Positions 1 through 32,744 are shown, counted from the stretch's first letter. The stretch is DNA of 64,000 nt from Candidatus Eiseniibacteriota bacterium (GCA_016215625.1 JACRIW010000047.1:6281-70280), one strand, 5' to 3'. The notes: generated by a model not told the origin, from the sequence alone. Program-made: numbers and translations.

Positions 1-823
1 CGATCGCGCGCACGCGGCCGATGTAGCCGACGCGCTCCGACACCGAGATCGCGCCGCGCGCGTCGAGCAGGTTGAACATGTGCGAGCACTTGATGACGGC
101 GTCGTAGCCGGGCGCGACGAGCTTCAGGTCCAGCAGGCGCGACGCTTCGGCCTCCCAGATCTTGAACATCGTGAACAGCTCGGCCACCGGCGCGTGCTCG
201 AAGTTGTAGTGCGACCACTCCCACTCGTTGCGGACCCACAGGTCGCCCCACGTGACGCCGGGCGCCCACATCAGGTCCTGCACGCGGCTCGTCTTCTGCA
301 GCATCATGCCGATGCGGTCGAGGCCGTACGTGAGCTCGGCCGACACGACCGGCAGTTCGAGACCGCCGCACTGCTGGAAGTAGGTGAACTGCGAGATCTC
401 GGTGCCGTCCATCCACACCTGCCAGCCGAGGCCGGCGGCGCCGAGCGTCGGCGACTCCCAGTCGTCCTCGACCAGCCGCAGGTCGTGCTCGCGCGGATCG
501 ATGCCCATCGCGGCGAGCGACTGGAAGTACGCGTCCACCACGTCGGAGGGCGCGGGCTTCAGCAGCACCTGGTACTGGAAGAACTGCTGGAAGCGGTTCG
601 GGTTCTCGCCGTAGCGGCCGTCCTTCGGACGGCGCGAAGGCTCGACGTACGCGACGCGCCACGGCTCGGGTCCGAGCGAGCGCAGGAAGGTCGCCGGGTT
701 GAAGGTGCCGGCGCCGACTTCGGAGGGATACGGCTGCTGGATCACGCAGCCGCGCTCGGCCCAGAACTGCTCGAGCGCGAGGATCATCCCCTGCAGGGAT
801 TCGTTGGGCTTCAGGGTGCTCAT
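1..823 (-). CDS. glyQ: Glycine--tRNA ligase alpha subunit (5' part; C-terminus runs off window start)
   Basis: Reverse-strand translation from the ATG (complement of cat ~821-823) gives [23 protein letters not shown]...[21 protein letters not shown], the canonical GlyQ N-terminus. Not in the ORF track because no stop lies inside the window. Confidence 0.85.
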
Positions 824-1720: not shown

Positions 1721-2587
1721 GTGCCCTTGACCGACGACGACCTCGACGCCCTGCAGACCGCGCTGCTCGCCCTGCACGAGGAACGCGATCTCGAGAGCTT
1801 TCGCGCCCATGCCCCGGAGATCGTGTTGCGGGCGGTGCCCGGCGACTACTTCGTGTGGACCGAGAACGGTTTCACGAACACGTCCGACCCGATGCGCAAC
1901 CTCGTGCTCTGGGAGCACCCGGTGCGCCTGACGCCGAAGGACATGAGGCGGCTGCTGTCGCTCGTGGACCAGCACCCTTTCACCCTGCACGCGAAGGCCA
2001 CCGGCGACTGGGGGCCGGTGAAGCTGTCCGACTTCTGGACCGACGAGCAGCTGAAGGCGTCGGTGTTCTGGCGCGACATCTATCGCAAGCTCGGGACGGG
2101 GCGGCTCATCGCCTGCGCGGTGTTCCGCGGCAACCGGTTCGGCACGATCAACGTGAGCCGGCCGCTCGACGCGCCGGACTTCGACGAGCGCGACCGCGAC
2201 ATGATGCGGCTGCTCACGCCGCATTTCCTGCAGGCGCATCACGCCGCCGAGCGCGTCTCGGCGTTGCGCAGCGAGACCGCGATTCCCGCGTCGGCGCTGG
2301 GGCTCACCGCGCGCGAAGTCGAGGTCGGCACCTGGATCGCGCGTGGCCGGACGAATCCCGAGATCGCGAAGATCCTCGCGATGCAGCCGCGCACGGTCGA
2401 GAAGCACGTCGAGCGCATCCTGCTCAAGCTCGGGGTCGACAACCGCACGTCGGCGGCGATGCTGCTCGCCGGCCGTGTCCCGATGGGCTCGGGTTTCTCC
2501 TCTCCCACGCCGCCGGCGCTCGTTGCCGAAAAGCGATCTCGAGTACGGAAGCCTCCAAAGCCCGAGACCAAGCGGCGGAATAGCTGA
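1721..2587 (+). CDS. LuxR/GerE-family transcriptional regulator with an uncharacterised ~200-aa N-terminal domain
   Basis: GTG start preceded by GGAGAGGGGGAG RBS. C-terminal HTH LGLTAREVEVGTWIARGRTNPEIAKILAMQPRTVEKHVERILLKLGV is typical LuxR/GerE. Confidence 0.8.
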   Translation: MPLTDDDLDALQTALLALHEERDLESFRAHAPEIVLRAVPGDYFVWTENGFTNTSDPMRNLVLWEHPVRLTPKDMRRLLSLVDQHPFTLHAKATGDWGPVKLSDFWTDEQLKASVFWRDIYRKLGTGRLIACAVFRGNRFGTINVSRPLDAPDFDERDRDMMRLLTPHFLQAHHAAERVSALRSETAIPASALGLTAREVEVGTWIARGRTNPEIAKILAMQPRTVEKHVERILLKLGVDNRTSAAMLLAGRVPMGSGFSSPTPPALVAEKRSRVRKPPKPETKRRNS

Positions 2588-8735: not shown

Positions 8736-9356
8736 TCAGTGCCCCTTCCGGGCGCGAGACTTGGCAACGACCGGACGCCGGGAGGGCGATTTCGCACGGC
8801 GGGCGGGTCCTGCGGGCTTCGCCGGGCGCGCGGGCCGGGTTGCGCGCGGCGCCGGCGTCGTGCGCGATGGCTTCGGCCACGCCTTCTCGAGCGCCGCGAT
8901 CGCCGCGGCGCCTTCGCTCATCGCGGCGTCCTCGTACGCGCGCATCACGCGCCGTTCGGCCGCCTTCATGTGATCGTGGCCGCACAGGTGGAGCGCGCCG
9001 TGAATCACCAGCCGAGCGAGTTCCTCGCCCTCGCTCACCTTCCAGCGCTTCGCCTGCACGCGCACGCGGTCCATCGAGACCACGAGGTCGCCTGTGACCG
9101 CCCGCGTGTCCGCGTCGGCCTCGTGCTCGTCGTACGCGAACGTGATCACGTCGGTCGCGTGATCCATGCCCCGCCAGTCGCGGTTGAGCGCACGCGTGGT
9201 CGCGTCGTCCGCGAGCACGACCGCGATCTCGCCGGTGCGGCGGCCGAGGCGCCGCAGGACGAGCGTCACGAGCGCGCGCAATGGCGCGCGCAGGCGCGCG
9301 GCGAGAGCGCGGCGCATGAAAAGTGGTGTCAAGACGATGGACATGGGCGGCATCAT
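8736..9356 (-). CDS. ybeY: rRNA maturation endoribonuclease YbeY with ~55-aa basic Pro/Ala/Arg-rich C-terminal tail
   Basis: Zinc motif HGALHLCGHDH and upstream DVITFAYDE. Tail PSRTTPAPRATRPARPAKPAGPARRAKSPSRRPVVAKSRARKGH. True start may be the internal Met (MRRALAARL). Confidence 0.8.
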   Translation of the reverse strand: MMPPMSIVLTPLFMRRALAARLRAPLRALVTLVLRRLGRRTGEIAVVLADDATTRALNRDWRGMDHATDVITFAYDEHEADADTRAVTGDLVVSMDRVRVQAKRWKVSEGEELARLVIHGALHLCGHDHMKAAERRVMRAYEDAAMSEGAAAIAALEKAWPKPSRTTPAPRATRPARPAKPAGPARRAKSPSRRPVVAKSRARKGH

Positions 9357-9397
9357 CGACGGAGGACGTCACTCACGCAATGCGACGGTGACGAACT

Positions 9398-11776
9398 TCA
9401 CCACGGATGACCGAGAAGCACGAAACTCGCCCAATAGACCGGATGCCGGTACGGTTGCCGGCCGTTCGAGTCGTGCCAATCGCGCACGGCGATGCGCGCT
9501 CGTTGCAGTGCTCGCACGGGCGTCGCCGCACGAACACCGGGTGCGAGCAACTCGGCGTAGAAGTGGTCAACCAGCAGTGCGGTCGCTCGGTCGTCCGCGT
9601 TCCAGAGACTCGCCACGACACAATGTGCGCCGGCATGCTGCATCGCGGTCGCGTGGCCGTTCAGCCCGTCGCCTCGCATGTCGCGCATGCCCATCGACTG
9701 GCAGGTCGCCAGAACGGCCAACCGGGCACTCAACCGCCATGACTCGAGTTCATCGATCGTCAGGCGACCGTCCGTGGAGTCGAAGCGAGCCGCCGCACGT
9801 TTGCTGACGGCGTTCGCCTCTGCCAGGACGATTGCCGCATCGCCCGAAAAGGCGAGGTCGTGCTTGTGGTGTGTCGCGAAGTGCACGAGGTCGAACTGTG
9901 CGAGCCGCCCGTCGCGAGCCAGCTCGCGCATACGGGCTTCACTCGCCGCCGCGCCGCGCAGCAGGAGCGCGCGCGGAAGCCGGGCGTGGAGCAAGCTCAG
10001 TTCGGTGCCAGCCTCGAGCAGCGGGATATCGCCGGGGGTCGGCCGCACCGGCCGGGGCGCGCCGACGAGCAGCGCGTTCGTCCCCCAGGCTCTGGCTCGC
10101 GGAGGGGAATCGAGATCGTGTGCGAGCAACAGCGCCGAGGGCACGTAGCCGATCGCGAACCGGTCAGAAAGCCAGCGCCCGTCCGGCCCCTTCGCGATTT
10201 CGAGCGGCAGCGCGTTGTTCACGGATGAAGACAGAACGAGCAGGTCGCGAACTCCCACCAGTTCAGGTTCGAACGGTGCGATGCGCAGTCGCCACAACAC
10301 GGTCGCCATCGAGTCGAGATCCGGAGTGGGCTCCACTCCGACGGGCCAGGCCGCCGATGCACGCAGCGAGTTGCGGAACTCGGACGTCCACAGATCGGCC
10401 CACTCGGGCGAATCCGGAGCGGGGTCGTCGAAGCGCACCCAGCGGACCGGCGCGCCACGACGGAGCACGAACCCGAAGAACGGATAGCGCAGATGGGAAG
10501 AAGGGCGGGATTCGAGCCAGCCGATGAGCGCGGTGGATTCTGGCAACGAGTTCCCCAGCCGACCGCCGAGTCCAGTCCACACCGAGTCACTCGCGAGGGC
10601 GGCAGGATCGAAGCGACGTTCCAGCGTGCCGCGTGCGACGGATCGCTGCAGGGTCTCGAAAGCACTCGTCGAATCGCCGAGTTGGAGCATCGCGAAAGCA
10701 CAATCCGCCCACGCCGCAATCGGAGCCACGAGCGATCGCCCCTGGTCCGGCCTCATCCTCGAATGACGCCTCTCCTGAACTTCTGCCGCGCGTCGCAGCA
10801 GGACGCGGGCTTCGACGAGTTGACCTCGCCTCGCGAGCAGGGTGCCGAGGGAGTGAAGCGCCATCGGAAGCGCAGGCCGCATCGTGTCGGCGGCGCCGTC
10901 CATGAGTCGAATCGCCTCCCGATAGTGAGCGATCGCCTCGTCGTCGTCGCCGAATCGAACGCAGGACACGCCCCAATCCGCCAGCACCTCGGCCGCCGTG
11001 AGGCTCGAATCGCCTTCCGCGCGGCGCGCGATCGCAAGCGCCTCGCGAAACAGGGCGTAGCACTTCTCCCGCTTGTTCATCTGCCGGTGGACATTCGCGA
11101 AGTCGAGCACCACCCGCCCCAGCTCCCGGGAGTTGGGGTCGCATACGCGCCTCGCGACGCGCTCGGCGCGTTCGAAATAGCCGAATGCGGTCTCGCGCGA
11201 ATATCCCGACAGCTTCCAGTCTCGTCCGAGCTGATCATTGCTTTCCGCGACCCAGGGCGAAACCTCGCCGAATGCGCGGCGGCGACATGCCAGGGCCAGT
11301 TCGTCCCACACGCGCGCTGCTGCGGCATCACCGAGCGCACATTCGACTCGCGCGAGCGCGGAACGCGTGGCTGCGACATCGGGGTGCTCCTCGCCGAGCA
11401 AGCGCGAGCGGGACGCCAACTGCGTGCGAAGCGCGGGCAACGTCCGGCCCCAGTTCTCTTCCGTGCGCACATCATCGGGCACCAGCGACTCGGCAAGCGC
11501 GAAAGCTCGTCGCACGCTCTCCGGTGCCGAAACGATACGCACGAGCGCGTCGCGATCGAACCGGGCTTCGGCGAGTTGCCAGCCCGCCGTGCGGGGGTCC
11601 TCGGCCAGCACTCGCTCGCGTGCACGCGCGAGGGCGAGTGCCGCTTGGAACTGCCCCGCCGCGCGGAGCCGCACGATCCGCTCCCGTGGCGGGTGCGCGG
11701 ACCGAGCCGGCATCCCGCACGCCGCCAGCGAGAGCGCGAGCGCGCAAAGAACGAGGTGCCGAGTGTCGCGCCTCAC
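9398..11776 (-). CDS. TPR-repeat plus CHAT-domain lipoprotein
   Basis: GTG start overlaps anti-sigma stop (GTGA). Lipoprotein signal VRRDTRHLVLCALALSLAACG. TPR-like helical repeats. C-terminal CHAT region (LVHFATHHKHD...LVLATCQS...ASLWNADD). Confidence 0.75.
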   Translation of the reverse strand: MRRDTRHLVLCALALSLAACGMPARSAHPPRERIVRLRAAGQFQAALALARARERVLAEDPRTAGWQLAEARFDRDALVRIVSAPESVRRAFALAESLVPDDVRTEENWGRTLPALRTQLASRSRLLGEEHPDVAATRSALARVECALGDAAAARVWDELALACRRRAFGEVSPWVAESNDQLGRDWKLSGYSRETAFGYFERAERVARRVCDPNSRELGRVVLDFANVHRQMNKREKCYALFREALAIARRAEGDSSLTAAEVLADWGVSCVRFGDDDEAIAHYREAIRLMDGAADTMRPALPMALHSLGTLLARRGQLVEARVLLRRAAEVQERRHSRMRPDQGRSLVAPIAAWADCAFAMLQLGDSTSAFETLQRSVARGTLERRFDPAALASDSVWTGLGGRLGNSLPESTALIGWLESRPSSHLRYPFFGFVLRRGAPVRWVRFDDPAPDSPEWADLWTSEFRNSLRASAAWPVGVEPTPDLDSMATVLWRLRIAPFEPELVGVRDLLVLSSSVNNALPLEIAKGPDGRWLSDRFAIGYVPSALLLAHDLDSPPRARAWGTNALLVGAPRPVRPTPGDIPLLEAGTELSLLHARLPRALLLRGAAASEARMRELARDGRLAQFDLVHFATHHKHDLAFSGDAAIVLAEANAVSKRAAARFDSTDGRLTIDELESWRLSARLAVLATCQSMGMRDMRGDGLNGHATAMQHAGAHCVVASLWNADDRATALLVDHFYAELLAPGVRAATPVRALQRARIAVRDWHDSNGRQPYRHPVYWASFVLLGHPW

Positions 11777-12537
11777 GGCATCGAACGCGCCTGTCTTAGT
11801 CGGCGCTTCGCGCGTTCGCCCACCGGTCCCACACGCAGCGACAGCTCTCCGAGCAGCGAGTCGGCCCGCGCCACCTCGCCCGTTCGCAGGCAGGCGACGT
11901 AGCGCGTCCACTCGTTTTCGCTTCGCCAGGGTTCCGGAAGCGTCGCGAAACGCACCGAACGAAGCGTCACGAGCGCCGAGTCCGGTTGATCCAGCCGAAG
12001 TTGCGCGCTCGCGAGGTAGACGCGACGCAGGATGTCGAACTCCTCGTCCGCGCTGGGCGCGGCGAGCAGATCGGCGGCACGCGCGAGCTCGCCGCGCTCG
12101 TACGCCTGCAGGCCATGAAGCACGACGCTGTCGGCACCGACCCCGGCACGAGTGGTGGCGAGATCCTCGAGGTGGATCGCGGGCAGAACGGTCGGCGGCG
12201 GTGCCTCCACCCTGCCGACCGGGCGTTCGAGCCGCGCCGCGAGCCAGGCGCCACCGAAGACTGCGAGAAAGGCCGCCGCGACGAGCACGATCCGCGGCGC
12301 GAAGAGCAGCCGGCCATCGAGCGATCGTGACCGGGCTCGCGCCGCCCCCACTGCTCCGGCGTACTCGGCCCGACCACGCTCATGCGAGCCGAACGTGGAG
12401 CGCAAGCGCTCCTCGCACTCGGCGCAGGTGCGAGCATGCTCGAACATCTCCCGGCATGCGGCGACGGGCAAGAGCCCCAAGACGAGATCGAGGCACTCGT
12501 CGTCGTCGAAGTGTCGTCTGCCCCGGTCAGGACTCAT
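11773..12537 (-). CDS. Membrane anti-sigma factor, zf-HC2 (ChrR/RsrA-like) type
   Basis: H-x3-C-x2-C motif (FEHARTCAECEERL), single TM (LLFAPRIVLVAAAFLAVFGGAWLAA). Start overlaps sigma gene end. Confidence 0.7.
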   Translation of the reverse strand: MSPDRGRRHFDDDECLDLVLGLLPVAACREMFEHARTCAECEERLRSTFGSHERGRAEYAGAVGAARARSRSLDGRLLFAPRIVLVAAAFLAVFGGAWLAARLERPVGRVEAPPPTVLPAIHLEDLATTRAGVGADSVVLHGLQAYERGELARAADLLAAPSADEEFDILRRVYLASAQLRLDQPDSALVTLRSVRFATLPEPWRSENEWTRYVACLRTGEVARADSLLGELSLRVGPVGERAKRRLRQARSMP

Positions 12538-13282
12538 GCGCCTTCCCCTCCTCCGGCGACAAGGGCTGCGCCGCGGACCAGCGTTCGAGCCCCGCCCACA
12601 ATGCCGCGAACGTCCCTGCGGGCAGGTCACGAGGCGTCAGGCCCTTTCGCCCGAGGCAGCCACGCACGGCATCCCGTGCGCGGTTCGCGACCACGTCGAC
12701 ATGAGCGGCGTTGATCGCGACCTCAGGGTGCGCCGCGATCTCACGGCTGGTCCACTCGAAAAAGGCTCGCAACAACCAGACACGACGGGCTCGAGGCGAC
12801 AGCTCGCCGACACAGTCTTCGAGCACGCTCACGAACTCCCGGGCTTCCGCCTCAGCTTCCGGTCGAGGCGAGGCCGAGACGAAATCGTGCTCCTGCAGGT
12901 TTTCCATGGATTCGATCGGTTCCGGGGACTCCCGCCGCCGAGCTCGCTGCTCGAGCAGCCGCCAGAGTCCGTTGCGCGCGACCGTCGAAAGGTATCCCGC
13001 GAGTTCGCCCGGCGCTCGCCCAGCGGTGTTCCACTCCCCGGATTCCGCGCGCAGAAGCAGTTCTAACGCCTTGCTCGACGCGAGGTCCTCGAGGTCTTCG
13101 ACCGAAACCCGCGGCGACCGGGACGCATGCAGGCGCAGATAGCGGGCGACGGCTCCCCGCAACAGGAGCCACGTCTGCGGACGCACGCCCGCTGCTCGCT
13201 CTCCGCCGGCACGCATGTCGGCAAGCAGGGCGAGCAACCGGGTCGGCCACAGAATCGTCGGAGAGAGATCGGCGGCGTTCAT
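12527..13282 (-). CDS. Sigma-70 family (ECF-like) RNA polymerase sigma factor
   Basis: Region-4-like segment RRVWLLRAFFEWTSREIAAHPEVAINAAHVDVVANRARDAVRGCL and region-2-like LSTVARNGLWRLL. First in a sigma/anti-sigma/CHAT operon. Confidence 0.6.
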   Translation of the reverse strand: MNAADLSPTILWPTRLLALLADMRAGGERAAGVRPQTWLLLRGAVARYLRLHASRSPRVSVEDLEDLASSKALELLLRAESGEWNTAGRAPGELAGYLSTVARNGLWRLLEQRARRRESPEPIESMENLQEHDFVSASPRPEAEAEAREFVSVLEDCVGELSPRARRVWLLRAFFEWTSREIAAHPEVAINAAHVDVVANRARDAVRGCLGRKGLTPRDLPAGTFAALWAGLERWSAAQPLSPEEGKAHES

Positions 13283-13464
13283 CCGGAAAAGTCTATACAG
13301 GGGCCGTCCTTCGGGAAAGCCAGCCGGCAGTTTCCCTCCGTTAGGTCGTGCCACACCGGCGGAATGAGATGTCACGAGGGCAGCGGTGCTCGCCACCTGG
13401 TTCGGGAGGTGGCGGCTGCCGGGCCGCCGATGAAACTTCCCACGTCCCGAACTCCGGAGCCTGC

Positions 13465-16400
13465 ATGCGCCCCATCCCGGCCGCCCGCCTGCTGTCCGTA
13501 CTCACAGCACTTCTCATCCTCGTACCGCGGCTCGCGAACGCGGTCGCGCTCGACTGGTGGGCGAACCGAACGTCGACTTCGTGCGTCTTCGAGTCCACCG
13601 CGCCCGGCACGATCCGGCTCGACAACTGCGCGAGCGGGTTCATCGAGGGCGACATCACGCTGCCCTCGAGCGGGAACTGGAAACTCTCGTTCGACGTGGA
13701 ACCCGACGAATCGACCGGGCGCAAGCCGAACGACTACGTCGACGTCTTCATCAACTCGGCCCGCATCGGGCGCTACTACAACACCCCCGCGGCCCCGGCA
13801 CTGCATCACGTCTCCGCGCTCGTGAACGGCTCGAGCGTGCACTACCGATTCGAGTTCCTGAGCACGGATCTCGCGACCCACATCCACATGGTCGTGCGCG
13901 CCGGACAGGCGGAACTCGAGCCTGCCTACCTCACGAACCCTTCGTTCGATGGTGGCACCTACGTCAATGCGACGCCCACGACCACAGGAGACTGGCAGGG
14001 CAATCTCGCCAGCTACGTGACCGCCGAGAACGGCGTCACTCCGTTCCAGGGCGGCCGCATGCTCAAGTTCCTGGGCACGGCCAACGGCGGCGCGAGCACG
14101 GGCGCCGGTTGTGAGGCCATCCAGTTGGTCAGCATGGCGCCCTACGCGAGCGCCGTGGCGGCCGGCATCTTCCGGCTCGAAGCGAGTGCCTACGTCAACC
14201 GCGTGGCGCTCGACTCACAGACGGACACGCAATTCGGCATCGAACTCGTAGCCTGCAGCGGCTCGATGAGCAGCTTCCCGCCGCCGGCCGCCAACCAGCT
14301 CGCGCGCGCGCGCACCCTGATCCGCACGGATGGTGACCCGGCGACATGGGAGCGCATTCCGGAGTGCCTGCTGCATGTTCCCTACGGAACGACCTACGTA
14401 GCCTACTACCTGTTCGCGGACGAAGACGTCATGAACGATGGCACCGCGCCCGAGTTCGATGGGCACTACGCCGACGGGGTCACGCTCCTGCGGGTCGCTC
14501 CGCCCGCCTGGAGCTGCGCCGATCTGGTCACGCCGGAAGGCAATGCGGGCGCCCATACGCTGACCGTGCCCGTGGCGCTCAGTGCGCCGATCTGGGCTCC
14601 CGCCTCCATCACCGCCTCGACCACCGACGGCACCGCGACCGCGGGGGACGGAGATTTCCTGCCGACGGCACAGACGCTCACGGTGAAGCCCACGCTGGCG
14701 TGGGCGCGCAAGTGGGGCTCGGTCGGTTCCGGCAACTCGCAGTTCGATCAACCCTCGGGTATCGCCGCCGATCGCTGGGGCAACATCTGGGTGGCGGACG
14801 GCAACAACCATCGGGTGGTGCGCTACACCCGCCGCAGCGATTACGCCGGCAAGTTCGGCACGAGCGGCAGCAGCCCCGGACAACTCGGCTTCGTCGTATC
14901 CGTCGCGGTCGATCCGATCTTCGGCCACGTGTATGTGGGTGGATCGGACTCACGCATTTCGGAGTTCACCGCCGACGGCACGTTCGTGCGCGAGTGGGGT
15001 TCGCCCGGCACGGGGCCGGGACAGTTCTCGACACTCAGTGGCATCGCCGTCGATTCGCAGGGCAACGTATACGCCGCCGATTGGGGCACCGGGCGTATCC
15101 AGAAGTTCTCGAGCACGGGGACCTTCCTGCTGCAGTGGGGATCGCTCGGCTCCGGGATCAGCCAACAGTCTCCCCGAGGCATCGCCATTGGCCGCCAGGA
15201 CGTCGTGTACGTGTCCGACACGTGGAACCCGCGGATCCAGCGGTAATCCTCGACGGGCGCGCCGCTCGGTCCGTTCGGCGGCTTCGGCTCCGGCCCCGGC
15301 CAGTTGAACCAACCCTGGGGCTTGTGCATCGATGCCGAGGGCAACGTGCTGGTCGCGGACCGCAGCAACAACCGCATCCAGATGTTCACGGCTTCGGGTA
15401 CCTGGCTCACGCAGTGGGGTTCGTCGGGCAGCGGCGACGGTCAGTTCAACGCTCCGATCGATGTGAGTTCGGCGCCGAACGGCGTCGTGTACGTCGTGGA
15501 GACCGGCGGGAATCGCGTGCAGTCGTTCGAACCGCGCGATCCCTCCACGAGCCTCGGACTCATCGTGTCCGGCGATGCGAGGCTCGAGAGCAACGAGAAC
15601 TTCGCGCTTTCGTTCGGCGCCCCAGCCGCGAGCGTGGCGCCCGCCGCGCCGGCGACGATCACGCTGACGAACGACGATGTCGGAGTCTTCTCCACTTCGG
15701 GTGCCTCCACCTCGCTGGTCGGTTCGGCAATGGTGAGTCCCATTGCGGATGGCCTGCGGCTGTCGAATCTGGGGCTGGCCGGAGCGGATGGGGCCGAAGT
15801 GACCGCGGGCGGCCTCAAGCTCTCGAGCACCCAGCCCGGGTCGATCGGCTTCGCCGCCGACTTCGCGAGCGCGGCCACGATTCCCGCCGGTGGCGCCAAC
15901 GTGGTCGCGCGCATGGTGGGCACCGTGGCCGGAGTCCCGCAGGCAACCATGGGCACGTACACCGTGAACCTGCTGCCGACCGGCGCCAACTCGGTCGGAG
16001 TCGACTTCTCGGGTGTCGGCGCGTCACAGTGGAACGTCGCCGTCTACAACGGCGCCACGCTCGTGCACCAGCGCACGGGACACAGTGGCGTTGGGGTGGG
16101 CTACCAGAGCTGCGGCCCCGAGCCGGGCATGCACGCGTCGGCCACCGGCGACCCGATCCCCGGCGTGGACGTCGAGATCGAGCAGGTACCGGGCGGCATC
16201 GCGGTCACGTCGCGGCCGGGCGGCTGCACCCACATCGATCTCGGTGACGGAACCGGCGTGCATGCGGGCGACCGCATCGTGTTCCGGTCGCCGTCGCCCG
16301 CCCTGCGGTCCGGCGACGGCCTCGCGGCCGTGCGGTTCACGTCGAGCCTGTCCTCGCTCGACGTGAAGAGCCTGGGCCTGCGCGTGCTGGGGGCGCTGCA

Positions 16401-17451
16401 CCGTTCGAGCGGTAACGCGCTGTTCGCGGCCAACTACAACAGCGCGAAGTCGAACACGGGGTGCATCATGAAGAACATCGGTCCGACCGGCGGTGATGGC
16501 GTGCGCATCGCCGTTCCAGAGGGCAAGAAGGCGGTGCACACCGAGTTCGGCAACACCGCGTTCCAGAGCTCGGACGCGGGCGCTTCGCTGACCGCGCGCG
16601 CGGTCGGCACCGCCAACGGCACACCGAACACGACGCTGTTCACGCTTTCGCAGACGGCCACGTCCACGGGCACCCAGCTGCGAGCGAACTTCACCGGCGC
16701 CTCGGTCGAGAGCGTGGTCGTGCTGAACGCGGGTGCGGTCGCCTATCGCGGCGAGGTGGCGAACAACGTCGTCGTGGGCGAAGAGGGCTTCCAGTCGCCC
16801 GCTCTGGGCGCGCACGAGGCGAACGGCCCGGCCCGCGTCGAAGCTGCGGGCGATCCGATTCCTGGTGTGGACATCGAGATCGAGCAAGTGCCGGGAGGCA
16901 TCTCGGCCGGTCGCTCCACGGTGCTCAACTACCGCAATCCCCGCACGTTCAACATCGGTGGCGTGCTGTACTCGGGTAACGTGATTTCATTCAAGCGCGC
17001 GTTCTCGCGCGGGTTGCACGCGCAGGTCGTGGACGACAGCACGGCGACCCTCGATGAGGTGCAGTGGATCGCCACCAACCCGGGCGCCACCACTCTCGAC
17101 AGCCTCGAGATCGTGGCCGAGACGATCGGCGCAGGCGGCACCGGGACGACGGGCGTCGGTGATTCCCCGGCACGAGTGCTGTCGGCGCTGCGAGCGTGGC
17201 CGAATCCCTCCGGGGGACGGACGGGGGTCGCGTTCACTCTCGGGTCCGCCAGCCGTGTGCGGGTCGTGATCTACGACGTCGCCGGGCGCGAGGTGCGTGA
17301 GTGGCACGCGCGGCGGTTCGAAGCGGGCGAGCATCATGTCGAATGGGACGGACTCGATGCGGGCGACCACCCGGTCGCAGCAGGCATCTACTTCGCCCGC
17401 GTCGAGGCAGGCGGAATGCGGCACGAGCTCAAGCTCGTGAGGCTTCACTGA
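13465..17451 (+). pseudogene. NHL-repeat secreted protein with T9SS-type C-terminal sorting domain, interrupted by one in-frame TAA (15244..15246)
   Basis: Track ORFs 13348..15246 and 15304..17451 are in the same frame. Signal peptide MRPIPAARLLSVLTALLILVPRLANA after a GGAG RBS. At least 5 NHL repeats span the stop (..NPRIQR*SSTGAPLGPFGGFGSGPGQLNQPWG..). C-terminus WPNPSGGRTGVAFTLGSASRVRVVIYDVAGREV...GIYFARVEAG is a Por_Secre_tail-like CTD. Confidence 0.7.
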
Positions 17452-17460
17452 GCCCCCATA

Positions 17461-17499
17461 CGAATGCGGCCGTCCCGTGCTTCGGGACGGCCGCATTCG
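17461..17499. terminator. Bidirectional intrinsic-terminator-like hairpin between convergent genes
   Basis: Perfect inverted repeat cgaatgcggccgtccc / gggacggccgcattcg around a 7-nt loop, between the NHL gene end (17451) and the HD-hydrolase gene end (17519). Confidence 0.6.
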
Positions 17500-17518
17500 T
17501 TCGCCGGAGAGGATCGGG

Positions 17519-19684
17519 CTAGGCGTCGCGTCGCGTGTCGCTCTCTCTCCCCGCGCGCTTCGGCGCGTCGGGATACGGCGCGCGCACGTGGAAGATCGCG
17601 GTGAGCACGGGAATGAACGACTCGCGGATGCGCGCCAGCTCCTGGAGCGTGAGCCCGCAGTCGTCGAGCTGCCCGTCGCGCACGCGTTCGTCGATGATGC
17701 GCTGCACGAGCCCGCGGATGCGGCTCGGCGTGGGCTCGGCGAGCGCGCGCGAGGCGCCCTCGACGCCGTCGGCCAGCATGAGGATCGCCGTCTCCTTCGA
17801 GCGCGGACGCGGACCCGGATAGCTGTAATCCTCGCGGCGCGCGCCCGGATCGGTCTCGAGCGCCTTGTGATAGAAGAACGCCATCACCATCGTGCCGTGG
17901 TGCTCGGGGATCGCGTCGAGCACGGCGCGCGGCAGGCGCTGCTTGCGCGCGAGTTCGAGGCCCTCGGTGATGTGCGACTTCACGACGAGCGCGCTCATGG
18001 ACGGCGTCAGTTTCTCGTGCCGCGAGCGCGACGAGGCCGGCTCGTTCTCGGCGTAGTACTCGGGCTTCGCGAGCTTGCCGATGTCGTGGTAGTAGGCCGC
18101 CACGCGCGCGAGCAGCGAGTTCGCGTTGATCGCCTCGGCGGCGGCTTCGGCGAGCGAGCCCACGACCATGCTGTGGTGGTACGTGCCGGGCGCCTCGAGC
18201 TGCAGGCGCCGCAGCAGCGGACGGTTCAGGTCCGACAGCTCGAGCAGCGTGATGTCGCTCGTGAGGCGGAACAGGCTCTCGACGAGCGGCAGGAACATGA
18301 ACGCCAGCATGGTCGAGAGGAAGGCGTTGAGCCCGCCCCACATGGCGTCGCGCAGCAGCACCTGGGTCGTCGCGGTCTGGGCGAGGTCCCACGCGAGGAT
18401 GGCGGCGAGGTTCGCGAGCATGATCGCGAAGAACGCGCGCACGAAGTGCCAGCGGTGGCGCAGGCGCGAGACCGAGTACGTGGCCGTGACGCCGCCCATC
18501 ATGGCGACGGGCACGAACGGCGCGCGCAGCTCGGCGACCGCGGTGACGAGCACGGCGACGACGAGCGTGAACACGAGCGCCGGTCGCTTCTCGAGCAGCG
18601 ACGCCACGACGAGCGGCGCGAGCGCGAGCGGCACCGTGAACTCCGAGAACCCGGCGACCGTCACGAGGCCGACCGCCGAGCCGAGCACGGCGAGGGTCAG
18701 CAGCGTGAACATCGCGAGCATGCCGTTGTCGCGGTAGACCGCGAGCAGCTCCATGCGCAGGTAGGTCGCGAACGCCGCGATGAACAGCAGCATGAGCAGC
18801 ATGCGCGCGACGGGCGGGTACAGGAACTCGCTCTGGTTGCTCTTCGCCAGCTCGAGGTTCCGCAGCGAGCGCAGCTTCTGCACGGCCTCGCGCGAGACGC
18901 GCTCGTTGGCGTCCACGATCAGCTCGTCCTTCTTCACCGTGCCGATCACGCCCGAGACGGCGCCCTGCGCCTGCACGCGGCGCCACTCGGTCTCGGCGCG
19001 GTCGTAGAGCACGGTCGACTGGACGAACGGCCCGGCGAGCCCCACGACGAGCTGCACGCCGCGCGGATCGTTCGGGAACAGCTCGCGCGCGCGCTGGGCG
19101 AGACGGTCGAGCGCCTCCTTGCGTTCGAGGAACCGGCTCGCCGGGGCGAGCGCCTCGGTCTCGCCTTCGCGCAGCGTGACGTTGCGGTACCCGAGGATGA
19201 AGCCGCCCTTCTTCTCGGCGACGATGCCCGACTGCACGAGTTCGGCGAGCCAGCCACCCATGGCGCCGAGCGCCTTGCGGGCACGGCCGGGCGCGGCGAG
19301 CGCGTCGGCGGCGTTCTCCTCGAGCGGCACGCCGAGCGCCTTCAGGCGCGCGACGCGCTCGGCGGGACTGACGCGGACGTCGGAGACGAGCGCGAGCGCG
19401 TGGTCCTGGAACGCGCTCCAGCGGTTCAGCACGTCGGCCTGCGCGCGCGTGTCCACGACGTAGACGGGCGGCACCGCCAGCCCGGCCTCTTCCTGCTCGC
19501 GCCGCAGCACCGGCTCGTCCTTCTGGACGCGGAAGTCGTACGGGGCGACCACGCGCTCGCGGGCGATGTCGCCCTCGCGGTAGCGCAGGCGGTCCCCGGC
19601 GCCGTGCCCCGTCGGCAGGAGCGCGGCGGCGGCCAGCAGCGTCACGACCATCAGCAGGCGCTGGGCGTAGTACCCCCAACGCAC
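17519..19684 (-). CDS. 7TM-receptor-coupled HD/HDIG phosphohydrolase (YqfF/PgpH-like)
   Basis: Seven central TM helices. HD motif YYHDIGKLAKP and ...LADGVEGASRAL. Classic partner of phoH and ybeY. Confidence 0.8.
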   Translation of the reverse strand: MRWGYYAQRLLMVVTLLAAAALLPTGHGAGDRLRYREGDIARERVVAPYDFRVQKDEPVLRREQEEAGLAVPPVYVVDTRAQADVLNRWSAFQDHALALVSDVRVSPAERVARLKALGVPLEENAADALAAPGRARKALGAMGGWLAELVQSGIVAEKKGGFILGYRNVTLREGETEALAPASRFLERKEALDRLAQRARELFPNDPRGVQLVVGLAGPFVQSTVLYDRAETEWRRVQAQGAVSGVIGTVKKDELIVDANERVSREAVQKLRSLRNLELAKSNQSEFLYPPVARMLLMLLFIAAFATYLRMELLAVYRDNGMLAMFTLLTLAVLGSAVGLVTVAGFSEFTVPLALAPLVVASLLEKRPALVFTLVVAVLVTAVAELRAPFVPVAMMGGVTATYSVSRLRHRWHFVRAFFAIMLANLAAILAWDLAQTATTQVLLRDAMWGGLNAFLSTMLAFMFLPLVESLFRLTSDITLLELSDLNRPLLRRLQLEAPGTYHHSMVVGSLAEAAAEAINANSLLARVAAYYHDIGKLAKPEYYAENEPASSRSRHEKLTPSMSALVVKSHITEGLELARKQRLPRAVLDAIPEHHGTMVMAFFYHKALETDPGARREDYSYPGPRPRSKETAILMLADGVEGASRALAEPTPSRIRGLVQRIIDERVRDGQLDDCGLTLQELARIRESFIPVLTAIFHVRAPYPDAPKRAGRESDTRRDA

Positions 19685-19804
19685 CGACCGGGCGCGGTCC
19701 GGCAGGGCCGGGACCGGCGACAGTTCCGAAGTACTCAGGCGGTCACTCCGTGGGTGAAGACAGGAGCCGGGGCGGGGCAGCCCCGGCTCACGACGGCGCG
19801 AACC

Positions 19805-20962
19805 TTACGCGAGAGGCCCGGCGGCGTCATCCGGGGACGCCGGAGCGCCCTCGGCGGCCGGGTCAGCGCCCTCTGCCGCAACGGCTTCGCCTTCGGCGCC
19901 TTCGGCGGCCGCGGCGGGCGGGACCTGGGCGAGCGGGTCGAGGCTCTCGCCCACGCCCTCTTCGGCCTTGCCCTCGGACTTCGCGTGATAGACGTCGAAC
20001 GCGTGGATGATCTCGCGCACCAGGCGGTGCCGGACCACGTCTTCGGGATGGAAGTACACGAACTCGATCCCGGGCACGTGGCCGAGGATGGACTGGATGC
20101 GCACGAGCCCCGACTGGTCGGCCGACTTGAGGTCGATCTGCGTCAGGTCGCCCGTGATCACCGCGCGCGAGTCCGTACCCATGCGCGTGAGGAACATCTT
20201 CATCTGGCGCACGGTCGTGTTCTGCGCCTCGTCGAGGATGATGAACGCGTTGTGGAGCGTGCGCCCGCGCATGAACGCGAGCGGCGCGATCTCGATGACG
20301 CCCATCTCGAGGAATCGGCGCATCTTGTCGTAGCTCATCAGGTCGGCCAGCGCGTCGTACATCGGGCGCAGGTACGGATCGACCTTCTCCTGCATGTCGC
20401 CGGGCAGGAAGCCGAGCGACTCGCCGGCCTCGACGGCCGGACGCACGAGGATGATGCGGTCCACTTTCTTCTGGCGCAGCGCCGCGACGGCGGCGGCGAC
20501 GGCCAGGTAGGTCTTGCCGGTGCCGGCCGGTCCGATGCCGAACACGACGTCGTGCTGCTCGAGCGCCTTGAGGTAGATCGCCTGCGTGGGCGTGCGGGCG
20601 CGCACCGACTTGCGGTCGAAGCTGTAGCCCGGAGCGCCGTCGTACGCCTCGACGAGCCGCGCACGTCCCTGTCCGTTGCCGTGGTTCGAGTCGTCCGAAT
20701 CGCCGTTCCGCCGCACCTGTCCCAACGCAGTGGCCACGTCCGCCTCCTCGATGGCTTTCCCACGCTCGGCGAGCTGCACGAGTTCGTTCAGCGCCGAAGA
20801 CGCGGGTCTCACGTCACCTTCTTCACCGGACACCGTCAGCGTTCCGTCGCGCAGCGTGATCCGCACCGGGATGGCGCGTTCGATCTGGCGAAGGTTCGCG
20901 TCGTTGTGCCCCAACAACGAGAGCTGGTCGAGATGATGAATGGGGAACTTCTTGGCGATCAC
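19805..20962 (-). CDS. phoH: PhoH-like ATPase (PhoH/YbeZ) with acidic Ala/Glu/Gly-rich C-terminal tail
   Basis: GTG start (VIAKKFPIHHLDQL). Walker A GIGPAGTGKTYLAVA, ...ILDEAQN. Tail AAAEGAEGEAVAAEGADPAAEGAPASPDDAAGPLA. Confidence 0.85.
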   Translation of the reverse strand: MIAKKFPIHHLDQLSLLGHNDANLRQIERAIPVRITLRDGTLTVSGEEGDVRPASSALNELVQLAERGKAIEEADVATALGQVRRNGDSDDSNHGNGQGRARLVEAYDGAPGYSFDRKSVRARTPTQAIYLKALEQHDVVFGIGPAGTGKTYLAVAAAVAALRQKKVDRIILVRPAVEAGESLGFLPGDMQEKVDPYLRPMYDALADLMSYDKMRRFLEMGVIEIAPLAFMRGRTLHNAFIILDEAQNTTVRQMKMFLTRMGTDSRAVITGDLTQIDLKSADQSGLVRIQSILGHVPGIEFVYFHPEDVVRHRLVREIIHAFDVYHAKSEGKAEEGVGESLDPLAQVPPAAAAEGAEGEAVAAEGADPAAEGAPASPDDAAGPLA

Positions 20963-21290
20963 GCGGTGCCTCTCGGTGCCGGGAAAACGCAAAACTCCCG
21001 ACCGGTCCCGCCCCGCTTCGGGGCGCCGATCAAGAGCTCGGGTGCAGCCGTTCCTGTGACGTCGGGGTGCGATGTCAATCGGGATGGCCCTGGAACTCTC
21101 CTCAAGGGGACGCCCGCCTTTCCTGGAGCCGGCGTCTCGTCGCCGCACGCGAAGGGCGGTGCGACGGCGGGACCATATCAGAAGCGATTCGCGGCGCCCT
21201 CACCGAAATACGCCCGGCGTCGCGCGGAACCCCTGCCTGCCCGCACGGTATCGGCAAGGCGGAGGGCCGGGGTTGAGGCGGGAATGCGGC

Positions 21291-29624: not shown

Positions 29625-32600
29625 TCAGTCCCCCAGCGGCACGAATCCCGACCACGCCGCGGGCGGGGTCGGCAACTTCGCCGCACGCAACACGGCGAGC
29701 CGCCGCAGCTGCGCGGCGCGGACGCTCGCCGCGACACCGAGGCCACGCTCGAGCCGGGCGCCGTAGTACGCGCTCATCCAGTCGTGCGTCGCGCGGTCGT
29801 TCACGGGCCACAGGCTCATCACGAGCGCATGCGCGCCCGCGAGGCGGAATGCGCGCTGGAGCCCCAGCACGCCCTCCCCGGCGGCGATGTCGCCGAGACC
29901 GGTGTCGCACGCGGAAAGCACGACTTCGTGCACGCCGGAGAGGTCCATCGTCGAGATCTCTTCCGCGGTCAGGATGCCGTCGTCCCCGCCGGTCGCGGCA
30001 GCACGGCGGTTCGCGCCCGCGAGCGCGAGCCCGGAGAGCCGCAGCGTCTGGCGTCCGCTCGGCGCGCTCGCGCTGCCGGAGCTCGCGGCGGGCGCCGTGC
30101 CGCCGATGCCTCGCGCCCCACCGGCGGGCGTGGCGCATTCGCCTCCCACGAAGAAGCCGTGCGTGGCGATGTGCAGCGTCGCGGCGCGCGAGGCCGTGCG
30201 GCGCAGCTCGACTTCGTTGGCCTGCGCGCCCGTCAGCATGACGACTTCACGCCCGGCGGCGCGCCATCGTTCCGCCAGCTCGCCGACTTCGTCGGACGTC
30301 GAGGGCAGCGCGCCGAAACGCACGTCACGGAAGCGGTCGCAGGCGACGGGCACGTTGCGCAGGTTCGCGGCGATCACGTCGGTCGCCGCGTGGGGAGCCG
30401 TGGCGCCGTCGAAATCGGCGCCTCCCAGGGCGACCAACGTGCCGATCGGCGCGTCGGAGGAGCGCACGAGGGCGAGGTCGCGCTCGGCCCCGAGCCGCAG
30501 GAGCAACGGCGCGCGCTCGGCGACGTAGCCGCCGCGCGCGTCCGGCAGCGCGGCGAAGTCCACCAGGTGCAGCGCACCGTCCGGCACGATCACGAGGCGC
30601 GACGCCGACGCGAGTCGCGACGCGATCGGGTCCCACACTCGCGCGCGCAGGCGCGCGCCGCTGGCTCGCGAGCGGCGCTCGGCGTCGGGGCCGGTGCGCG
30701 AGACGTCCTCGCGCCAGTTTGCGGCGAGCGCGTCGAGCTCGGCCGCGCGGCCGAGCGCCACGACTTCGGGGGCCGCGCCGGAACGCGCCACGAACGCGAG
30801 CATGCGCCGTTCGGTGCGCGAACCTCCCGCGGGCGCCGCGTATTCGAGGAACGAGACGAGCACGTCGCCCTCTCCCAGCGCGTCGAGCGGATGCGCGCCG
30901 CCGGGGACGTCCTGCGGCAGGCCGAGATCGGCGAGCCGGCGCTCGAATCGTTCGGCACGCGAGCGCGCGTCGCGCTGCAGCGAGTCCAGCGCGTGGTTGC
31001 TTTCGGCACGCACGAGCCAGCGCGCGAGCACGCCGCGCGCCTGCGCGAGCGAATCGAGCAGCGCGTTCGCGCGCGGATCGTCGCCGCGATGCGCCGCCTT
31101 CAACCGGCTGCCGACTTCGTCGAGCACCAGCGACCGCGCCTCGACGACCCGATCGAACGCGATGCGGCGTTGCGCGTCGTCGAGCTTTCCGGAAGCCGCG
31201 AGTGCGAGCAACGGATCGAGTCCGAGTCCCGACCCCCGTGCGTACACGAGCGCCTGCCGGTCGGGGAACCCGCGCGCGGCCGTGCGCAACAGCGAGGCCT
31301 GCATCGCGGCCAGCTCGCGCGAGACCTCGAACGCACGCGCGTCGCCCATCTGCACGAGCGCACGGGCGCGCTCGGCGACCAGCTTCGCGTGCAGCGGTCC
31401 GCCGGAGCCCAGTTCGGTGATCGCTCGAGCGATCGCGGGCTCGAGCCTGGCCGCCGCCTCCGCGGGCCGGCCGGCGTCGGTCAGGCACTGCGCCCAGAGC
31501 AGCGCGCCTTCGTAGAAGCCCGGCGCGCGGTCGCCTTCGCGTTCGGCGATCCGCGACGCGAGCTCGATCCCGTGCATCGCCGCGGCGCTGTCGCCGGCGA
31601 CGCGAAGAGCGGTGGCGCGCTCGAACAGGATCGGCAGCGCCGAGAGACTGTCCTGCCGCGCCGCCTGGTACGCCGCGGCGCTGTCGAAGCACGCGACGGC
31701 CTCACGACCACGCCCCAGCCCGAGCAACGCACGGCCGCGCTGGTGCAGGTACTCGTAGTGCGACGGATCGTCCGGACGGAACGCGCGCAGGCTCAGGTGG
31801 CGTGCGCGCTCCTGGACCGCGAACGCCTCCTCGAAGTCGCCGAGGTCGTTCAGGCACTCGACCAGCGCGTCGGCGCTGTTCGCGACGCGCAGCGTGTCCA
31901 TGCGGGGACGCGCCAGCTCCCACTCGATGCCGCGCTCGAAGAGCCCGCGCGCGCGCACGAGATCGCCCACGCGCATCGACAGGATCGCGATGTTGTATCG
32001 CGTGAGCTGCGTGTCCGGATGATCGGGACCGAGCTGGATCTCGAGCAGGTGCGCCACGTGCTCCATCATCTCGAGCGCGCCGACCTCGTCACCGGCCATG
32101 TTGAGCTGTCCGGCGAGTGCGCTGTAGGTCGCCATGAGCCGGATGTCGTCCCGGCCGAAGTGCGACTCCATGATCCGCACCGCGCGCCTGCCTTCCTCGA
32201 CCGCGTCGGTGCGCGCGGCGTTCGTCGCGATGAGCGCGACCTGCCGCAGCGACGACGCGACCTCGAGGTCGTCCCCGGGCAGCGCACGTTCGTACATCGC
32301 GAGCGCGCGCCGCGCGTCGCGCACGGCGGGTTCGAACTCGCGCCGGCGGCGGTGCACTTCGGAGGAGGCGCGGATCGCGCGTGCGAGCGTGAGCGAATCC
32401 GGCCCCGGGTGCTTCGAGAAGATCGCGAGCGTGCGCTGGAGCTGTTCGAGGAGCAGCCCTTCGCGGCCGCGGCCGGCGAGCGCGCCGATCTCGACGACGT
32501 CGAGCAAGGCCACGCCGACCTTGAACGAGTCCGGCTCCTGGCGCGCCACGAGCTGCGAATAGGCCGCGGTCGCGAGGGTGTCCATGCGCGGGAATGCGCG

Positions 32601-32744
32601 GGCCTTGGCGAGTTCGGTCCATTGCGGGCGGTAGCCGATCGAACGCCAAGAGAGCGTGTCGAGCGGCGCGGCGGATCGGCCGCGAGCGGCGGCCGCGGGT
32701 CCGGCGAGGAGAGCGAGCAGGCAGAGAGCGAGCAGGGTGCGCAT
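29625..32744 (-). CDS. Large TPR-repeat plus CHAT-domain secreted protein (second CHAT protein in window)
   Basis: Signal peptide MRTLLALCLLALLAGPAAAA. ~600 aa of TPR-like repeats. C-terminal CHAT region (LHIATHGFF...VVLSACDTGLG...SLWPVND). Confidence 0.75.
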   Translation of the reverse strand: MRTLLALCLLALLAGPAAAARGRSAAPLDTLSWRSIGYRPQWTELAKARAFPRMDTLATAAYSQLVARQEPDSFKVGVALLDVVEIGALAGRGREGLLLEQLQRTLAIFSKHPGPDSLTLARAIRASSEVHRRRREFEPAVRDARRALAMYERALPGDDLEVASSLRQVALIATNAARTDAVEEGRRAVRIMESHFGRDDIRLMATYSALAGQLNMAGDEVGALEMMEHVAHLLEIQLGPDHPDTQLTRYNIAILSMRVGDLVRARGLFERGIEWELARPRMDTLRVANSADALVECLNDLGDFEEAFAVQERARHLSLRAFRPDDPSHYEYLHQRGRALLGLGRGREAVACFDSAAAYQAARQDSLSALPILFERATALRVAGDSAAAMHGIELASRIAEREGDRAPGFYEGALLWAQCLTDAGRPAEAAARLEPAIARAITELGSGGPLHAKLVAERARALVQMGDARAFEVSRELAAMQASLLRTAARGFPDRQALVYARGSGLGLDPLLALAASGKLDDAQRRIAFDRVVEARSLVLDEVGSRLKAAHRGDDPRANALLDSLAQARGVLARWLVRAESNHALDSLQRDARSRAERFERRLADLGLPQDVPGGAHPLDALGEGDVLVSFLEYAAPAGGSRTERRMLAFVARSGAAPEVVALGRAAELDALAANWREDVSRTGPDAERRSRASGARLRARVWDPIASRLASASRLVIVPDGALHLVDFAALPDARGGYVAERAPLLLRLGAERDLALVRSSDAPIGTLVALGGADFDGATAPHAATDVIAANLRNVPVACDRFRDVRFGALPSTSDEVGELAERWRAAGREVVMLTGAQANEVELRRTASRAATLHIATHGFFVGGECATPAGGARGIGGTAPAASSGSASAPSGRQTLRLSGLALAGANRRAAATGGDDGILTAEEISTMDLSGVHEVVLSACDTGLGDIAAGEGVLGLQRAFRLAGAHALVMSLWPVNDRATHDWMSAYYGARLERGLGVAASVRAAQLRRLAVLRAAKLPTPPAAWSGFVPLGD

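Follow-up and report, generated by a model that had tools for sequence, protein, structure and literature searches.

The subject of this report is a group of three genes on the minus strand of a 64,000-nt stretch of DNA (the window; ~70% G+C) from an uncultured soil bacterium of Candidatus Eiseniibacteriota (GCA_016215625.1, JACRIW010000047.1:6281-70280), which are predicted to encode a sigma factor of the extracytoplasmic function (ECF) type, a membrane protein of the zinc-motif (ZAS) anti-sigma type, and a lipoprotein in which a TPR array is fused to a caspase-like CHAT domain. The three genes occur together in 52 independent loci, and we hold it very probable that their products form one signalling module. 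As for the way in which this module works, we assign a probability of roughly 45% to the reading in which it connects the cell envelope to transcription, with the CHAT lipoprotein clipping the anti-sigma factor in trans as a site-1 protease. This reading builds on the anatomy of the genes, their three-way association, the export signals, the conservation of a His/Cys dyad and of four zinc ligands, and an anti-sigma ectodomain with a TPR fold.

The genes were called by reading the minus strand directly and from a listing of open reading frames (ORFs), and their boundaries agree to the nucleotide with the first-pass annotation of this DNA, which had described three chained genes followed at a short distance by ybeY (Table 1). 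The sigma and anti-sigma genes have positions 12527-12537 in common, an 11-nt overlap (ATGAGTCCTGA), the TGA of the anti-sigma gene and the GTG of the CHAT gene share the 4-nt sequence GTGA, and 41 nt separate the CHAT stop codon from the ATG of ybeY. The GTG start of the CHAT gene is supported by the orthologues, because they hold a signal peptide or a lipobox at that position.

Table 1. Coordinates of the three genes, of the features within their products, and of the adjoining elements (window positions; residues numbered from the start codons given here)
Feature	Residues	Window positions	Strand	Remarks
Sigma gene		12527-13282	-	ATG at 13282, TGA ending at 12527; 251 aa
Anti-sigma gene		11773-12537	-	ATG at 12537, TGA 11775-11773; 254 aa
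TPR-CHAT gene		9398-11776	-	GTG 11776-11774, end at 9398; 792 aa
ybeY		8736-9356	-	ATG at 9356; Pfam YbeY 4e-29
Promoter-like site of the sigma operon		13290-13318	-	TTTCCC 13318-13313, 17-nt spacer, TAGACT 13295-13290, 7 nt to the ATG
Anti-sigma zinc-motif (ZAS-type) domain	1-72	12322-12537	-	predicted cytoplasmic
Anti-sigma predicted transmembrane helix	82-103	12229-12294	-	
Anti-sigma juxtamembrane linker, WLP motif	117-119		-	conserved
Anti-sigma 3-TPR domain	137-252	11782-12129	-	predicted periplasmic; nearly invariant LPEPW motif
CHAT protein signal peptide and lipobox	1-20	11717-11776	-	L17-A18-A19-C20
CHAT protein TPR region	~73-345		-	TPR_12 6e-22, TPR_10 8e-15
CHAT domain (PF12770)	491-789	9410-10306	-	Pfam 152.6 bits (cutoff 24), 2e-44, model 4-288 of 289
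Predicted catalytic His636 codon	636	9869-9871	-	second His of H632-x3-H636, VHFATHH
Predicted catalytic Cys692 codon	692	9701-9703	-	motif LATCQS

The strongest evidence for a functional link comes from the distribution of the trio. Starting from the sigma factor and taking one genome per species, 18 loci were collected, mostly from Eisenbacteria, together with one from Krumholzibacteriia and one from a metagenome-assembled genome (MAG) labelled Gemmatimonadota. The sigma, anti-sigma and TPR-CHAT genes follow one another in the same order and on the same strand in 10 of the 18; in one further locus (L010) a TPR-repeat lipoprotein follows the anti-sigma gene just before the contig ends, in another (L011) the CHAT gene lies divergently upstream, and in the remaining six the contigs end too early to be informative. 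Counting L010 and L011, the trio is thus together in 12 of 12 informative genome loci. The trio is likewise present on each of five metagenome contigs picked by way of the sigma homologues, among them the two full-length ones that diverge most (36-37% identity); here the CHAT gene is convergent in L019 and L020, co-directional in L021 and divergent in L022 and L023, so that on the sigma side all three genes are found in 17/17 informative loci. A metagenome scan from the other side, made with the C-terminus of the CHAT protein and with the neighbours tested by sigma and anti-sigma hidden Markov models, yielded 62 loci, 22 of them uninformative; a sigma gene, an anti-sigma gene or both adjoin the CHAT gene in 35 of the 39 informative ones. 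Within these 35, the CHAT gene is convergent in 27, the order is sigma-anti-CHAT in four and CHAT-sigma-anti in two, and the arrangement is divergent in two. The survey that the first-pass annotation had proposed, for a triad conserved in related genomes, therefore brought the triad out from both directions. The overlap of the sigma and anti-sigma genes recurs, at 4-20 nt, in 21 of 22 other loci. The flanks vary between loci, with nothing beyond the three genes common to all of them, and the trio takes four orientations in total. That the genes have been kept together through inversion and through the loss of co-transcription is strong evidence that they are functionally linked. It follows from the prevalence of convergent CHAT genes in the metagenome loci that the tight operon of the window is one variant and not the rule; the earlier description of a hard-wired, translationally coupled unit holds for the Eisenbacteria genome loci and does not extend to the 27 of 35 metagenome loci just mentioned, which shows that the module does not depend on being an operon.

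The third gene product had been described as a CHAT domain joined to TPR repeats and a lipoprotein signal, and all three elements are present: Pfam recognizes both CHAT and TPR, and the N-terminus, M(V)RRDTRHLVLCALALSLAAC, is a lipoprotein signal with the lipobox LAAC (MRRDTRHLVLCALALSLAAC), of which the lipobox or a signal peptide is kept in the orthologues. It had also been proposed that the integrity of the catalytic dyad be checked by alignment; 17/17 orthologues have H632, H636 and C692 in place, within the motifs hHhAtH and L(A/S)xC and with 48-56 residues between His and Cys. The assignment of H636 and C692 as the dyad is made by analogy with the (S/T)HG and xAC motifs of the caspase fold, and these positions correspond to HIATHG and LSACDTG of a second CHAT protein encoded in the window. 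As judged from the alignment, then, the His/Cys dyad is intact, and the exported TPR-CHAT protein is probably a caspase-fold cysteine protease. Searches of the PDB sequences with the full protein, with a full-length profile, with a profile of the CHAT part, and with the canonical paralogue retrieved either TPR proteins or nothing, and no solved CHAT structure. This paralogue of the window is itself an exported TPR-CHAT protein (29625-32744, minus strand; 1,039 aa; CHAT 7e-56; signal peptide MRTLLALCLLALLAGPAAAA); it has no sigma or anti-sigma gene nearby, and is a distant relative only, 35% identical to the CHAT protein of the triad over the last 144 aa.

The protein encoded by the middle gene of the trio carries the zinc motif H9-x24-H34-x3-C38-x2-C41, whose four ligands are invariant in 12 homologues and kept in 98-100% of 153 mutually distant representatives. 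This spacing, H-x24-H-x3-C-x2-C, is that of classical ZAS domains, as in ChrR- and RslA-type proteins, in which a His or Cys ligand precedes H-x3-C-x2-C by ~23-26 residues. The motif aligns with that of Mycobacterium tuberculosis RslA (3hug) at a non-significant E-value of 0.34, sequence and profile searches gave no significant match to a solved structure, and Pfam at E<=10 returned neither zf-HC2 (PF13490) nor any other family apart from one spurious match at 0.21. The assignment as an anti-sigma factor thus follows from the invariant motif and from the position of the gene, and the protein would belong to the ZAS type, with its zinc domain as the part that is likely to hold the sigma factor. 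An AlphaFold2 model (predicted local distance difference test, pLDDT, 83.7) places helices at residues 12-19, 25-37 and 39-72 with pLDDT values of ~87-96, then the helix at 82-103, followed by a linker of low confidence and a helical ectodomain of high confidence. Fold searches with this model gave nothing but TPR matches for the ectodomain, and on the strength of the model we regard the ectodomain as having a TPR fold and the protein as having a single-pass topology. A profile of the anti-sigma factor, run against 1.84 billion representatives, matched at least 369 clusters (50% identity) at E<=1e-30; the best-scoring 150 relatives are ~230-325 aa long, and a fusion to CHAT occurs in 0/150. 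In the public annotation the protein is HZA61_06975, a 232-aa 'hypothetical protein' whose start is placed 22 codons late, with the consequence that His9, the first zinc ligand, is lost together with the overlap with the sigma gene. In the linker, which is variable for the rest, the stretch at residues 117-130 (~12148-12189) has L118 in 90% and P119 in 92% of the 153 relatives, and an Arg ~9 residues later in 92%; where this Arg aligns, the protein of the window has a Thr, with an Arg following two residues further on. This WLP...R stretch is a candidate site for docking or for cleavage.

The sequence of the first protein is identical over its whole length to the NCBI entry, which comes from a Candidatus Eisenbacteria MAG (86-kb contig). 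It consists of an N-terminal extension with a WPxRL motif, sigma-2-like and sigma-4 regions, and a short C-terminal tail, PAGxFxxLW. The NCBIfam model TIGR02937 (sigma70-ECF) matches residues 44-207 with 46.4 bits (cutoff 42.9; model 17-162 of 165), Pfam Sigma70_r4_2 reaches 22.9-23.2 bits and stays under its cutoff of 25.7, and Sigma70_r2 gives no match even at E<=10. No equivalog or subfamily NCBIfam model was reached, the best being TIGR02943 with 47.5 bits against the 162.2 needed. A search with the single sequence retrieved no solved sigma factor; a profile built from 32 family members matches solved ECF sigma factors, with 7qh5 at 1.9e-5 and SigD, SigH, SigE, CnrH, RpoE and SigW further down, to 0.027. 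We read these matches as those of a very divergent ECF (group 4) member of the sigma-70 family. Accordingly, the labels first given to the pair, an ECF-like sigma factor and a zf-HC2 anti-sigma factor, stand in so far as TIGR02937 and the zinc motif support them, and fall short where Sigma70_r4_2 remains under its cutoff and Pfam finds no zf-HC2. The sigma family comprises 85 homologue clusters, all of MAG or metagenome origin, and a plasmid collection gave no sigma match. Two cysteines that flank the sigma-4 region, C157 and C209, are invariant in 32/32 aligned homologues, and so is the conserved PAGxFxxLW tail; they could serve in redox sensing, in metal binding, or in contact with the anti-sigma factor.

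Just upstream of the sigma gene lies a promoter-like site, the sole match to a relaxed promoter pattern in the 64-kb window, where 2-4 would be expected by chance; the built-in sigma-70 promoter scan did not call it. In 15 of 18 sequences (17 loci and the window), and in L019 and L021 besides, a hexamer of the form TAnnCT or TAnnnT stands 6-12 nt 5' of the start codon of the sigma gene; TTTC(C/G)G is often present 17 nt upstream of it. Such a geometry suggests a leaderless or near-leaderless sigma mRNA, which would be transcribed from a putative promoter with a housekeeping-type -10 element (TAnnnT).

In the mechanism that we propose, the anti-sigma factor would use its cytoplasmic zinc-motif domain to keep the ECF sigma factor inactive at the inner membrane, and it would show to the periplasm a small 3-TPR domain, tied to the membrane helix by the conserved linker. 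The TPR-CHAT protein, lipid-anchored and presumably periplasmic, might sense an envelope cue either via its own TPR array or via the TPR ectodomain of the anti-sigma factor, whereupon its protease would cut the periplasmic part of the anti-sigma factor in trans, possibly in the juxtamembrane linker. This cut would expose the anti-sigma factor to an RseP-type intramembrane protease and to cytoplasmic degradation, and the freed sigma factor would redirect RNA polymerase. The first-pass annotation had suspected a module for envelope signalling or regulated proteolysis, and this idea gains from the association of the trio, the invariant dyad, the export signals, the probable periplasmic location of the anti-sigma TPR domain, and the precedent of DdvS/DdvA (PMC11506125). 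Of the two findings that the annotation had named as refuting it, a CHAT domain lacking the dyad and no conserved co-occurrence with sigma/anti-sigma pairs, neither was obtained.

That precedent is the closest known architecture. DdvA of Myxococcus xanthus is a transmembrane ZAS anti-sigma factor that carries a ~900-residue periplasmic TPR-CHAT part with the canonical His/Cys dyad; when deprived of this part it becomes a substrate of RseP, which the bulk of the TPR-CHAT sterically blocks, and its authors propose, as a hypothesis only, that CHAT acts as a site-1 protease in trans within a dimer (PMC11506125). In both systems the ECF sigma gene precedes that of an anti-sigma factor with an N-terminal H-x3-C-x2-C domain and one transmembrane helix (here predicted), the periplasmic side bears a TPR-CHAT with a His/Cys dyad, and a TPR-like region lies between the protease and the membrane; regulated intramembrane proteolysis would make sense for either, and the spacing of 48-56 residues between His and Cys here compares with 45 residues for H862-C907 in DdvA (PMC11506125). 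The differences are equally clear. DdvA is one dimerising chain of ~990 aa, whereas here a 254-aa anti-sigma factor with a 3-TPR ectodomain is accompanied by a separate 792-aa lipoprotein, and the ZAS/transmembrane and TPR-CHAT parts are encoded by separate genes in every locus examined. The fused proteins are reported only in Myxococcota and in one Comamonas (PMC11506125), in contrast to the Eisenbacteria and relatives considered here, where the sigma factor is very divergent and no adjoining CBASS (cyclic-oligonucleotide-based antiphage signalling) or CRISPR (clustered regularly interspaced short palindromic repeats) genes were found. Since our profiles detect neither DdvA nor any solved CHAT protein, the relation is one of architecture and not of demonstrated homology, and because the module is unfused and shares no detectable sequence homology with DdvA, we place it among systems that may work like DdvA and not in the DdvA family.

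Three further comparisons are instructive. With the classical cascades of regulated intramembrane proteolysis (sigmaE-RseA-DegS-RseP, sigmaW-RsiW-PrsW-RasP, and AlgU-MucA-AlgW) the module has in common a predicted single-pass anti-sigma factor acting on an ECF sigma factor and a periplasmic site-1 cut that presumably licenses a site-2 protease; it differs from them in that the candidate site-1 enzyme is a CHAT cysteine protease, instead of a serine or metalloprotease, and is encoded beside the sigma pair rather than elsewhere. In the type III-E craspase, Csx29 (TPR-CHAT) cleaves Csx30, which holds an ECF sigma factor (PMC10028731), so that there, too, a TPR-CHAT protease is coupled to the release of an ECF-type sigma factor from an inhibitory partner; the craspase, however, is cytoplasmic, RNA-guided and bound to Cas7-11, whereas the CHAT protein described here is exported and the putative inhibitor is a membrane ZAS protein. 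Finally, the ECF54 group has a genomic context with CHAT, subtilase and carboxypeptidase genes, for which proteolytic regulation without an anti-sigma factor was proposed (PMC8999054); the conserved neighbourhood of an ECF sigma factor and a CHAT-domain protein is shared, but here a conserved ZAS anti-sigma factor is always present. A literature search retrieved no paper on this sigma/anti-sigma/CHAT family or on the sigma factors of Eisenbacteria.

Several points weigh against cleavage in trans by the CHAT lipoprotein. The binding of the sigma factor by the anti-sigma factor, the activity of the protease, the choice of the anti-sigma factor as its substrate, the signal and the regulon are all steps that we infer. 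Four CHAT-side loci (~10% of the informative ones) lack the sigma pair despite at least 1.8 kb of sequence on both sides, and a CHAT relative on a Gemmatirosa plasmid has neither a sigma nor an anti-sigma gene within 5 kb upstream and 8 kb downstream. Mutants of the DdvA dyad had no phenotype in the absence of the signal (PMC11506125). Searches of the PDB sequences with the CHAT, anti-sigma and sigma profiles gave no entry identifiable as DdvA or DdvS, and the single-sequence AlphaFold2 model of the CHAT protein, with a pLDDT of 41, is unusable for fold comparison.

The alternative that survives best, which we nevertheless consider rather unlikely, makes the TPR-CHAT protein not the trigger of the regulon but its output or partner, an envelope protease, or a scaffold working on other substrates of the periplasm or the outer membrane, that is kept adjacent because the sigma factor controls it; the anti-sigma factor would then be inactivated in some other way, for instance by a DegS- or Prc-type protease, or because its ZAS motif is oxidised or loses its zinc. 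The place of the CHAT gene at the end of the sigma operon, in the window and in 10 genome loci, is indeed the usual spot for effectors under ECF control, and where it forms a separate convergent unit, as in most metagenome loci, it needs a promoter of its own, which may be sigma-dependent. The full conservation of the ZAS motif points the same way, some ZAS proteins being redox sensors, as does a DegP/HtrA-type protease (Trypsin_2 and PDZ; L020 4670-5818, minus strand) encoded divergently beside the sigma gene of this distant triad. This HtrA-like neighbour occurs in that one locus only, however, and a superficial look at the regions upstream of the sigma and CHAT genes brought out no convincing common motif of a shared sigma-type promoter. 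An output role also leaves unexplained the strong conservation of the periplasmic TPR domain and linker of the anti-sigma factor, near which no other conserved periplasmic partner is encoded.

A role as a periplasmic co-sensor or co-anti-sigma factor in the manner of RseB, with the TPR-CHAT protein binding the TPR domain of the anti-sigma factor, so as to shield it or lay it open, and using its dyad for self-processing or for the cleavage of a signal protein, seems to us improbable. It would account for the presence of TPR interaction modules on both partners in what is presumably the same compartment, and it draws on the steric block that the TPR-CHAT part of DdvA imposes on RseP as well as on the separase and craspase-type CHAT proteases, which are held tightly inactive until a partner changes (PMC11506125). 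Yet the invariance of the dyad in 17/17 orthologues argues for a selected catalytic role, and no second conserved gene that could encode a substrate accompanies the module.

We judge it distinctly improbable that the module serves as an anti-phage or conflict sensor, although DdvS/DdvA, its nearest characterised counterpart, controls a CBASS/CRISPR island (PMC11506125), and CRISPR signalling of types III-E and III-B involves CHAT proteases. On this account a periplasmic phage protein would be the signal and defence genes elsewhere the targets. PADLOC gave no hits for the triad and six neighbouring genes, cas genes included, and neither cas nor CBASS-like domains were found in the window genes scanned with Pfam; the flanks differ between genomes and consist of housekeeping or secreted-protein genes, and proximity to defence systems is confined to a subset even among the fused DdvA-like pairs (PMC11506125). 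The hint of a conflict system in the first-pass annotation is therefore not borne out by the surroundings. A phage signal concerns the cue and the regulon, and is compatible with the cleavage mechanism. Fortuitous adjacency, with CHAT as an unrelated neighbour and the overlaps as compact packing, could appeal to the solitary exported TPR-CHAT proteins of the window and of the Gemmatirosa plasmid, but it is effectively refuted by the synteny of the trio, retained in its 52 loci and four orientations while the other neighbours change, and we give it next to no credence.

The trio had also been thought to feed into ybeY. In a search of the 18 genome loci with the ybeY of the window, neither this gene nor the TonB-like gene downstream turned up in the vicinity of the triad, and ybeY is absent from the gene tables of the five metagenome triad contigs, so the suggestion does not generalise. 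In bacteria, phoH, pgpH and ybeY usually follow directly upon one another, as in phoH-yqfF-yqfG of Bacillus subtilis and ybeZ-ybeY of Escherichia coli. Upstream of the triad there are an NHL-repeat gene on the other strand, a 7TM-HD/PgpH-like gene (17519-19684) and phoH (19805-21148), and the phoH-pgpH-ybeY cluster (8736-21148, minus strand) is apparently split by ~8 kb that hold the NHL gene and the triad. The GC content at third codon positions is 0.77-0.79 in the triad genes against 0.85-0.95 in their neighbours, which could be a sign of low expression or of recent acquisition; the related loci L001, L016 and L018 show a milder dip. The split cluster and the lower third-position GC together suggest that the triad and the NHL gene were inserted, and that the proximity of ybeY is incidental. 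The spacer between CHAT and ybeY contains no terminator by a consensus scan and no stable hairpin by RNA folding (z = -0.7); because no terminator was found, read-through from CHAT into ybeY is possible in this genome. Rfam over the whole window and a search for repeats gave nothing beyond chance.

Secreted proteins of the FlgD_ig/Por-tail type adjoin the triads of the window and of L011 and L021-L023, and were considered as a regulon; this candidate was rejected, since the window alone has at least three such genes, so that chance would be expected to place some of them beside a triad. The NHL-repeat region itself comprises two ORFs on the plus strand, 13348-15246 and 15304-17451, which are in the same frame and are split only by one in-frame TAA that falls within an NHL repeat (15244-15246, between ...NPRIQR and SSTG...). 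Joined (13348-17451), they would give a secreted protein of ~1,370 aa with a FlgD_ig/Por-tail C-terminus, so that the stop marks a pseudogene or else results from an error in assembly or sequencing. Farther away, a LuxR/GerE-type regulator (1721-2587, plus strand; GerE 4e-15) has a weak PADLOC 'CARF3' match (5.6e-6) in its C-terminal region, which probably reflects the helix-turn-helix and not a CARF domain.

What is new here is not a principle, but a split, DdvA-like ECF/ZAS/TPR-CHAT module that has gone unannotated although uncultured bacteria of soil and sediment carry it widely. Somewhat more tentatively than the cleavage mechanism itself, we suggest that the CHAT lipoprotein may be a dedicated, separately encoded site-1 protease for ZAS anti-sigma factors, and that the module forms a large unannotated family, with the anti-sigma cluster count given above, in Eisenbacteria and in bacteria related to them from soil and sediment. 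That a periplasmic CHAT protease starts the release of an ECF sigma factor is a hypothesis even for DdvA, where protease and substrate share one chain; with the two on separate proteins, the cleavage step becomes directly testable, in a system cleaner than the fused one. The distribution of the module indicates that the design is widespread and not a myxobacterial oddity; its anti-sigma factor is annotated as hypothetical, from a start codon called wrongly, and is matched by none of the Pfam families. One subfamily of the common and poorly understood bacterial TPR-CHAT proteins thereby gains a functional context and, if the proposed mechanism is true, the module would be a trans-acting, two-component version of a mechanism that has only been hypothesised for the fused DdvA.

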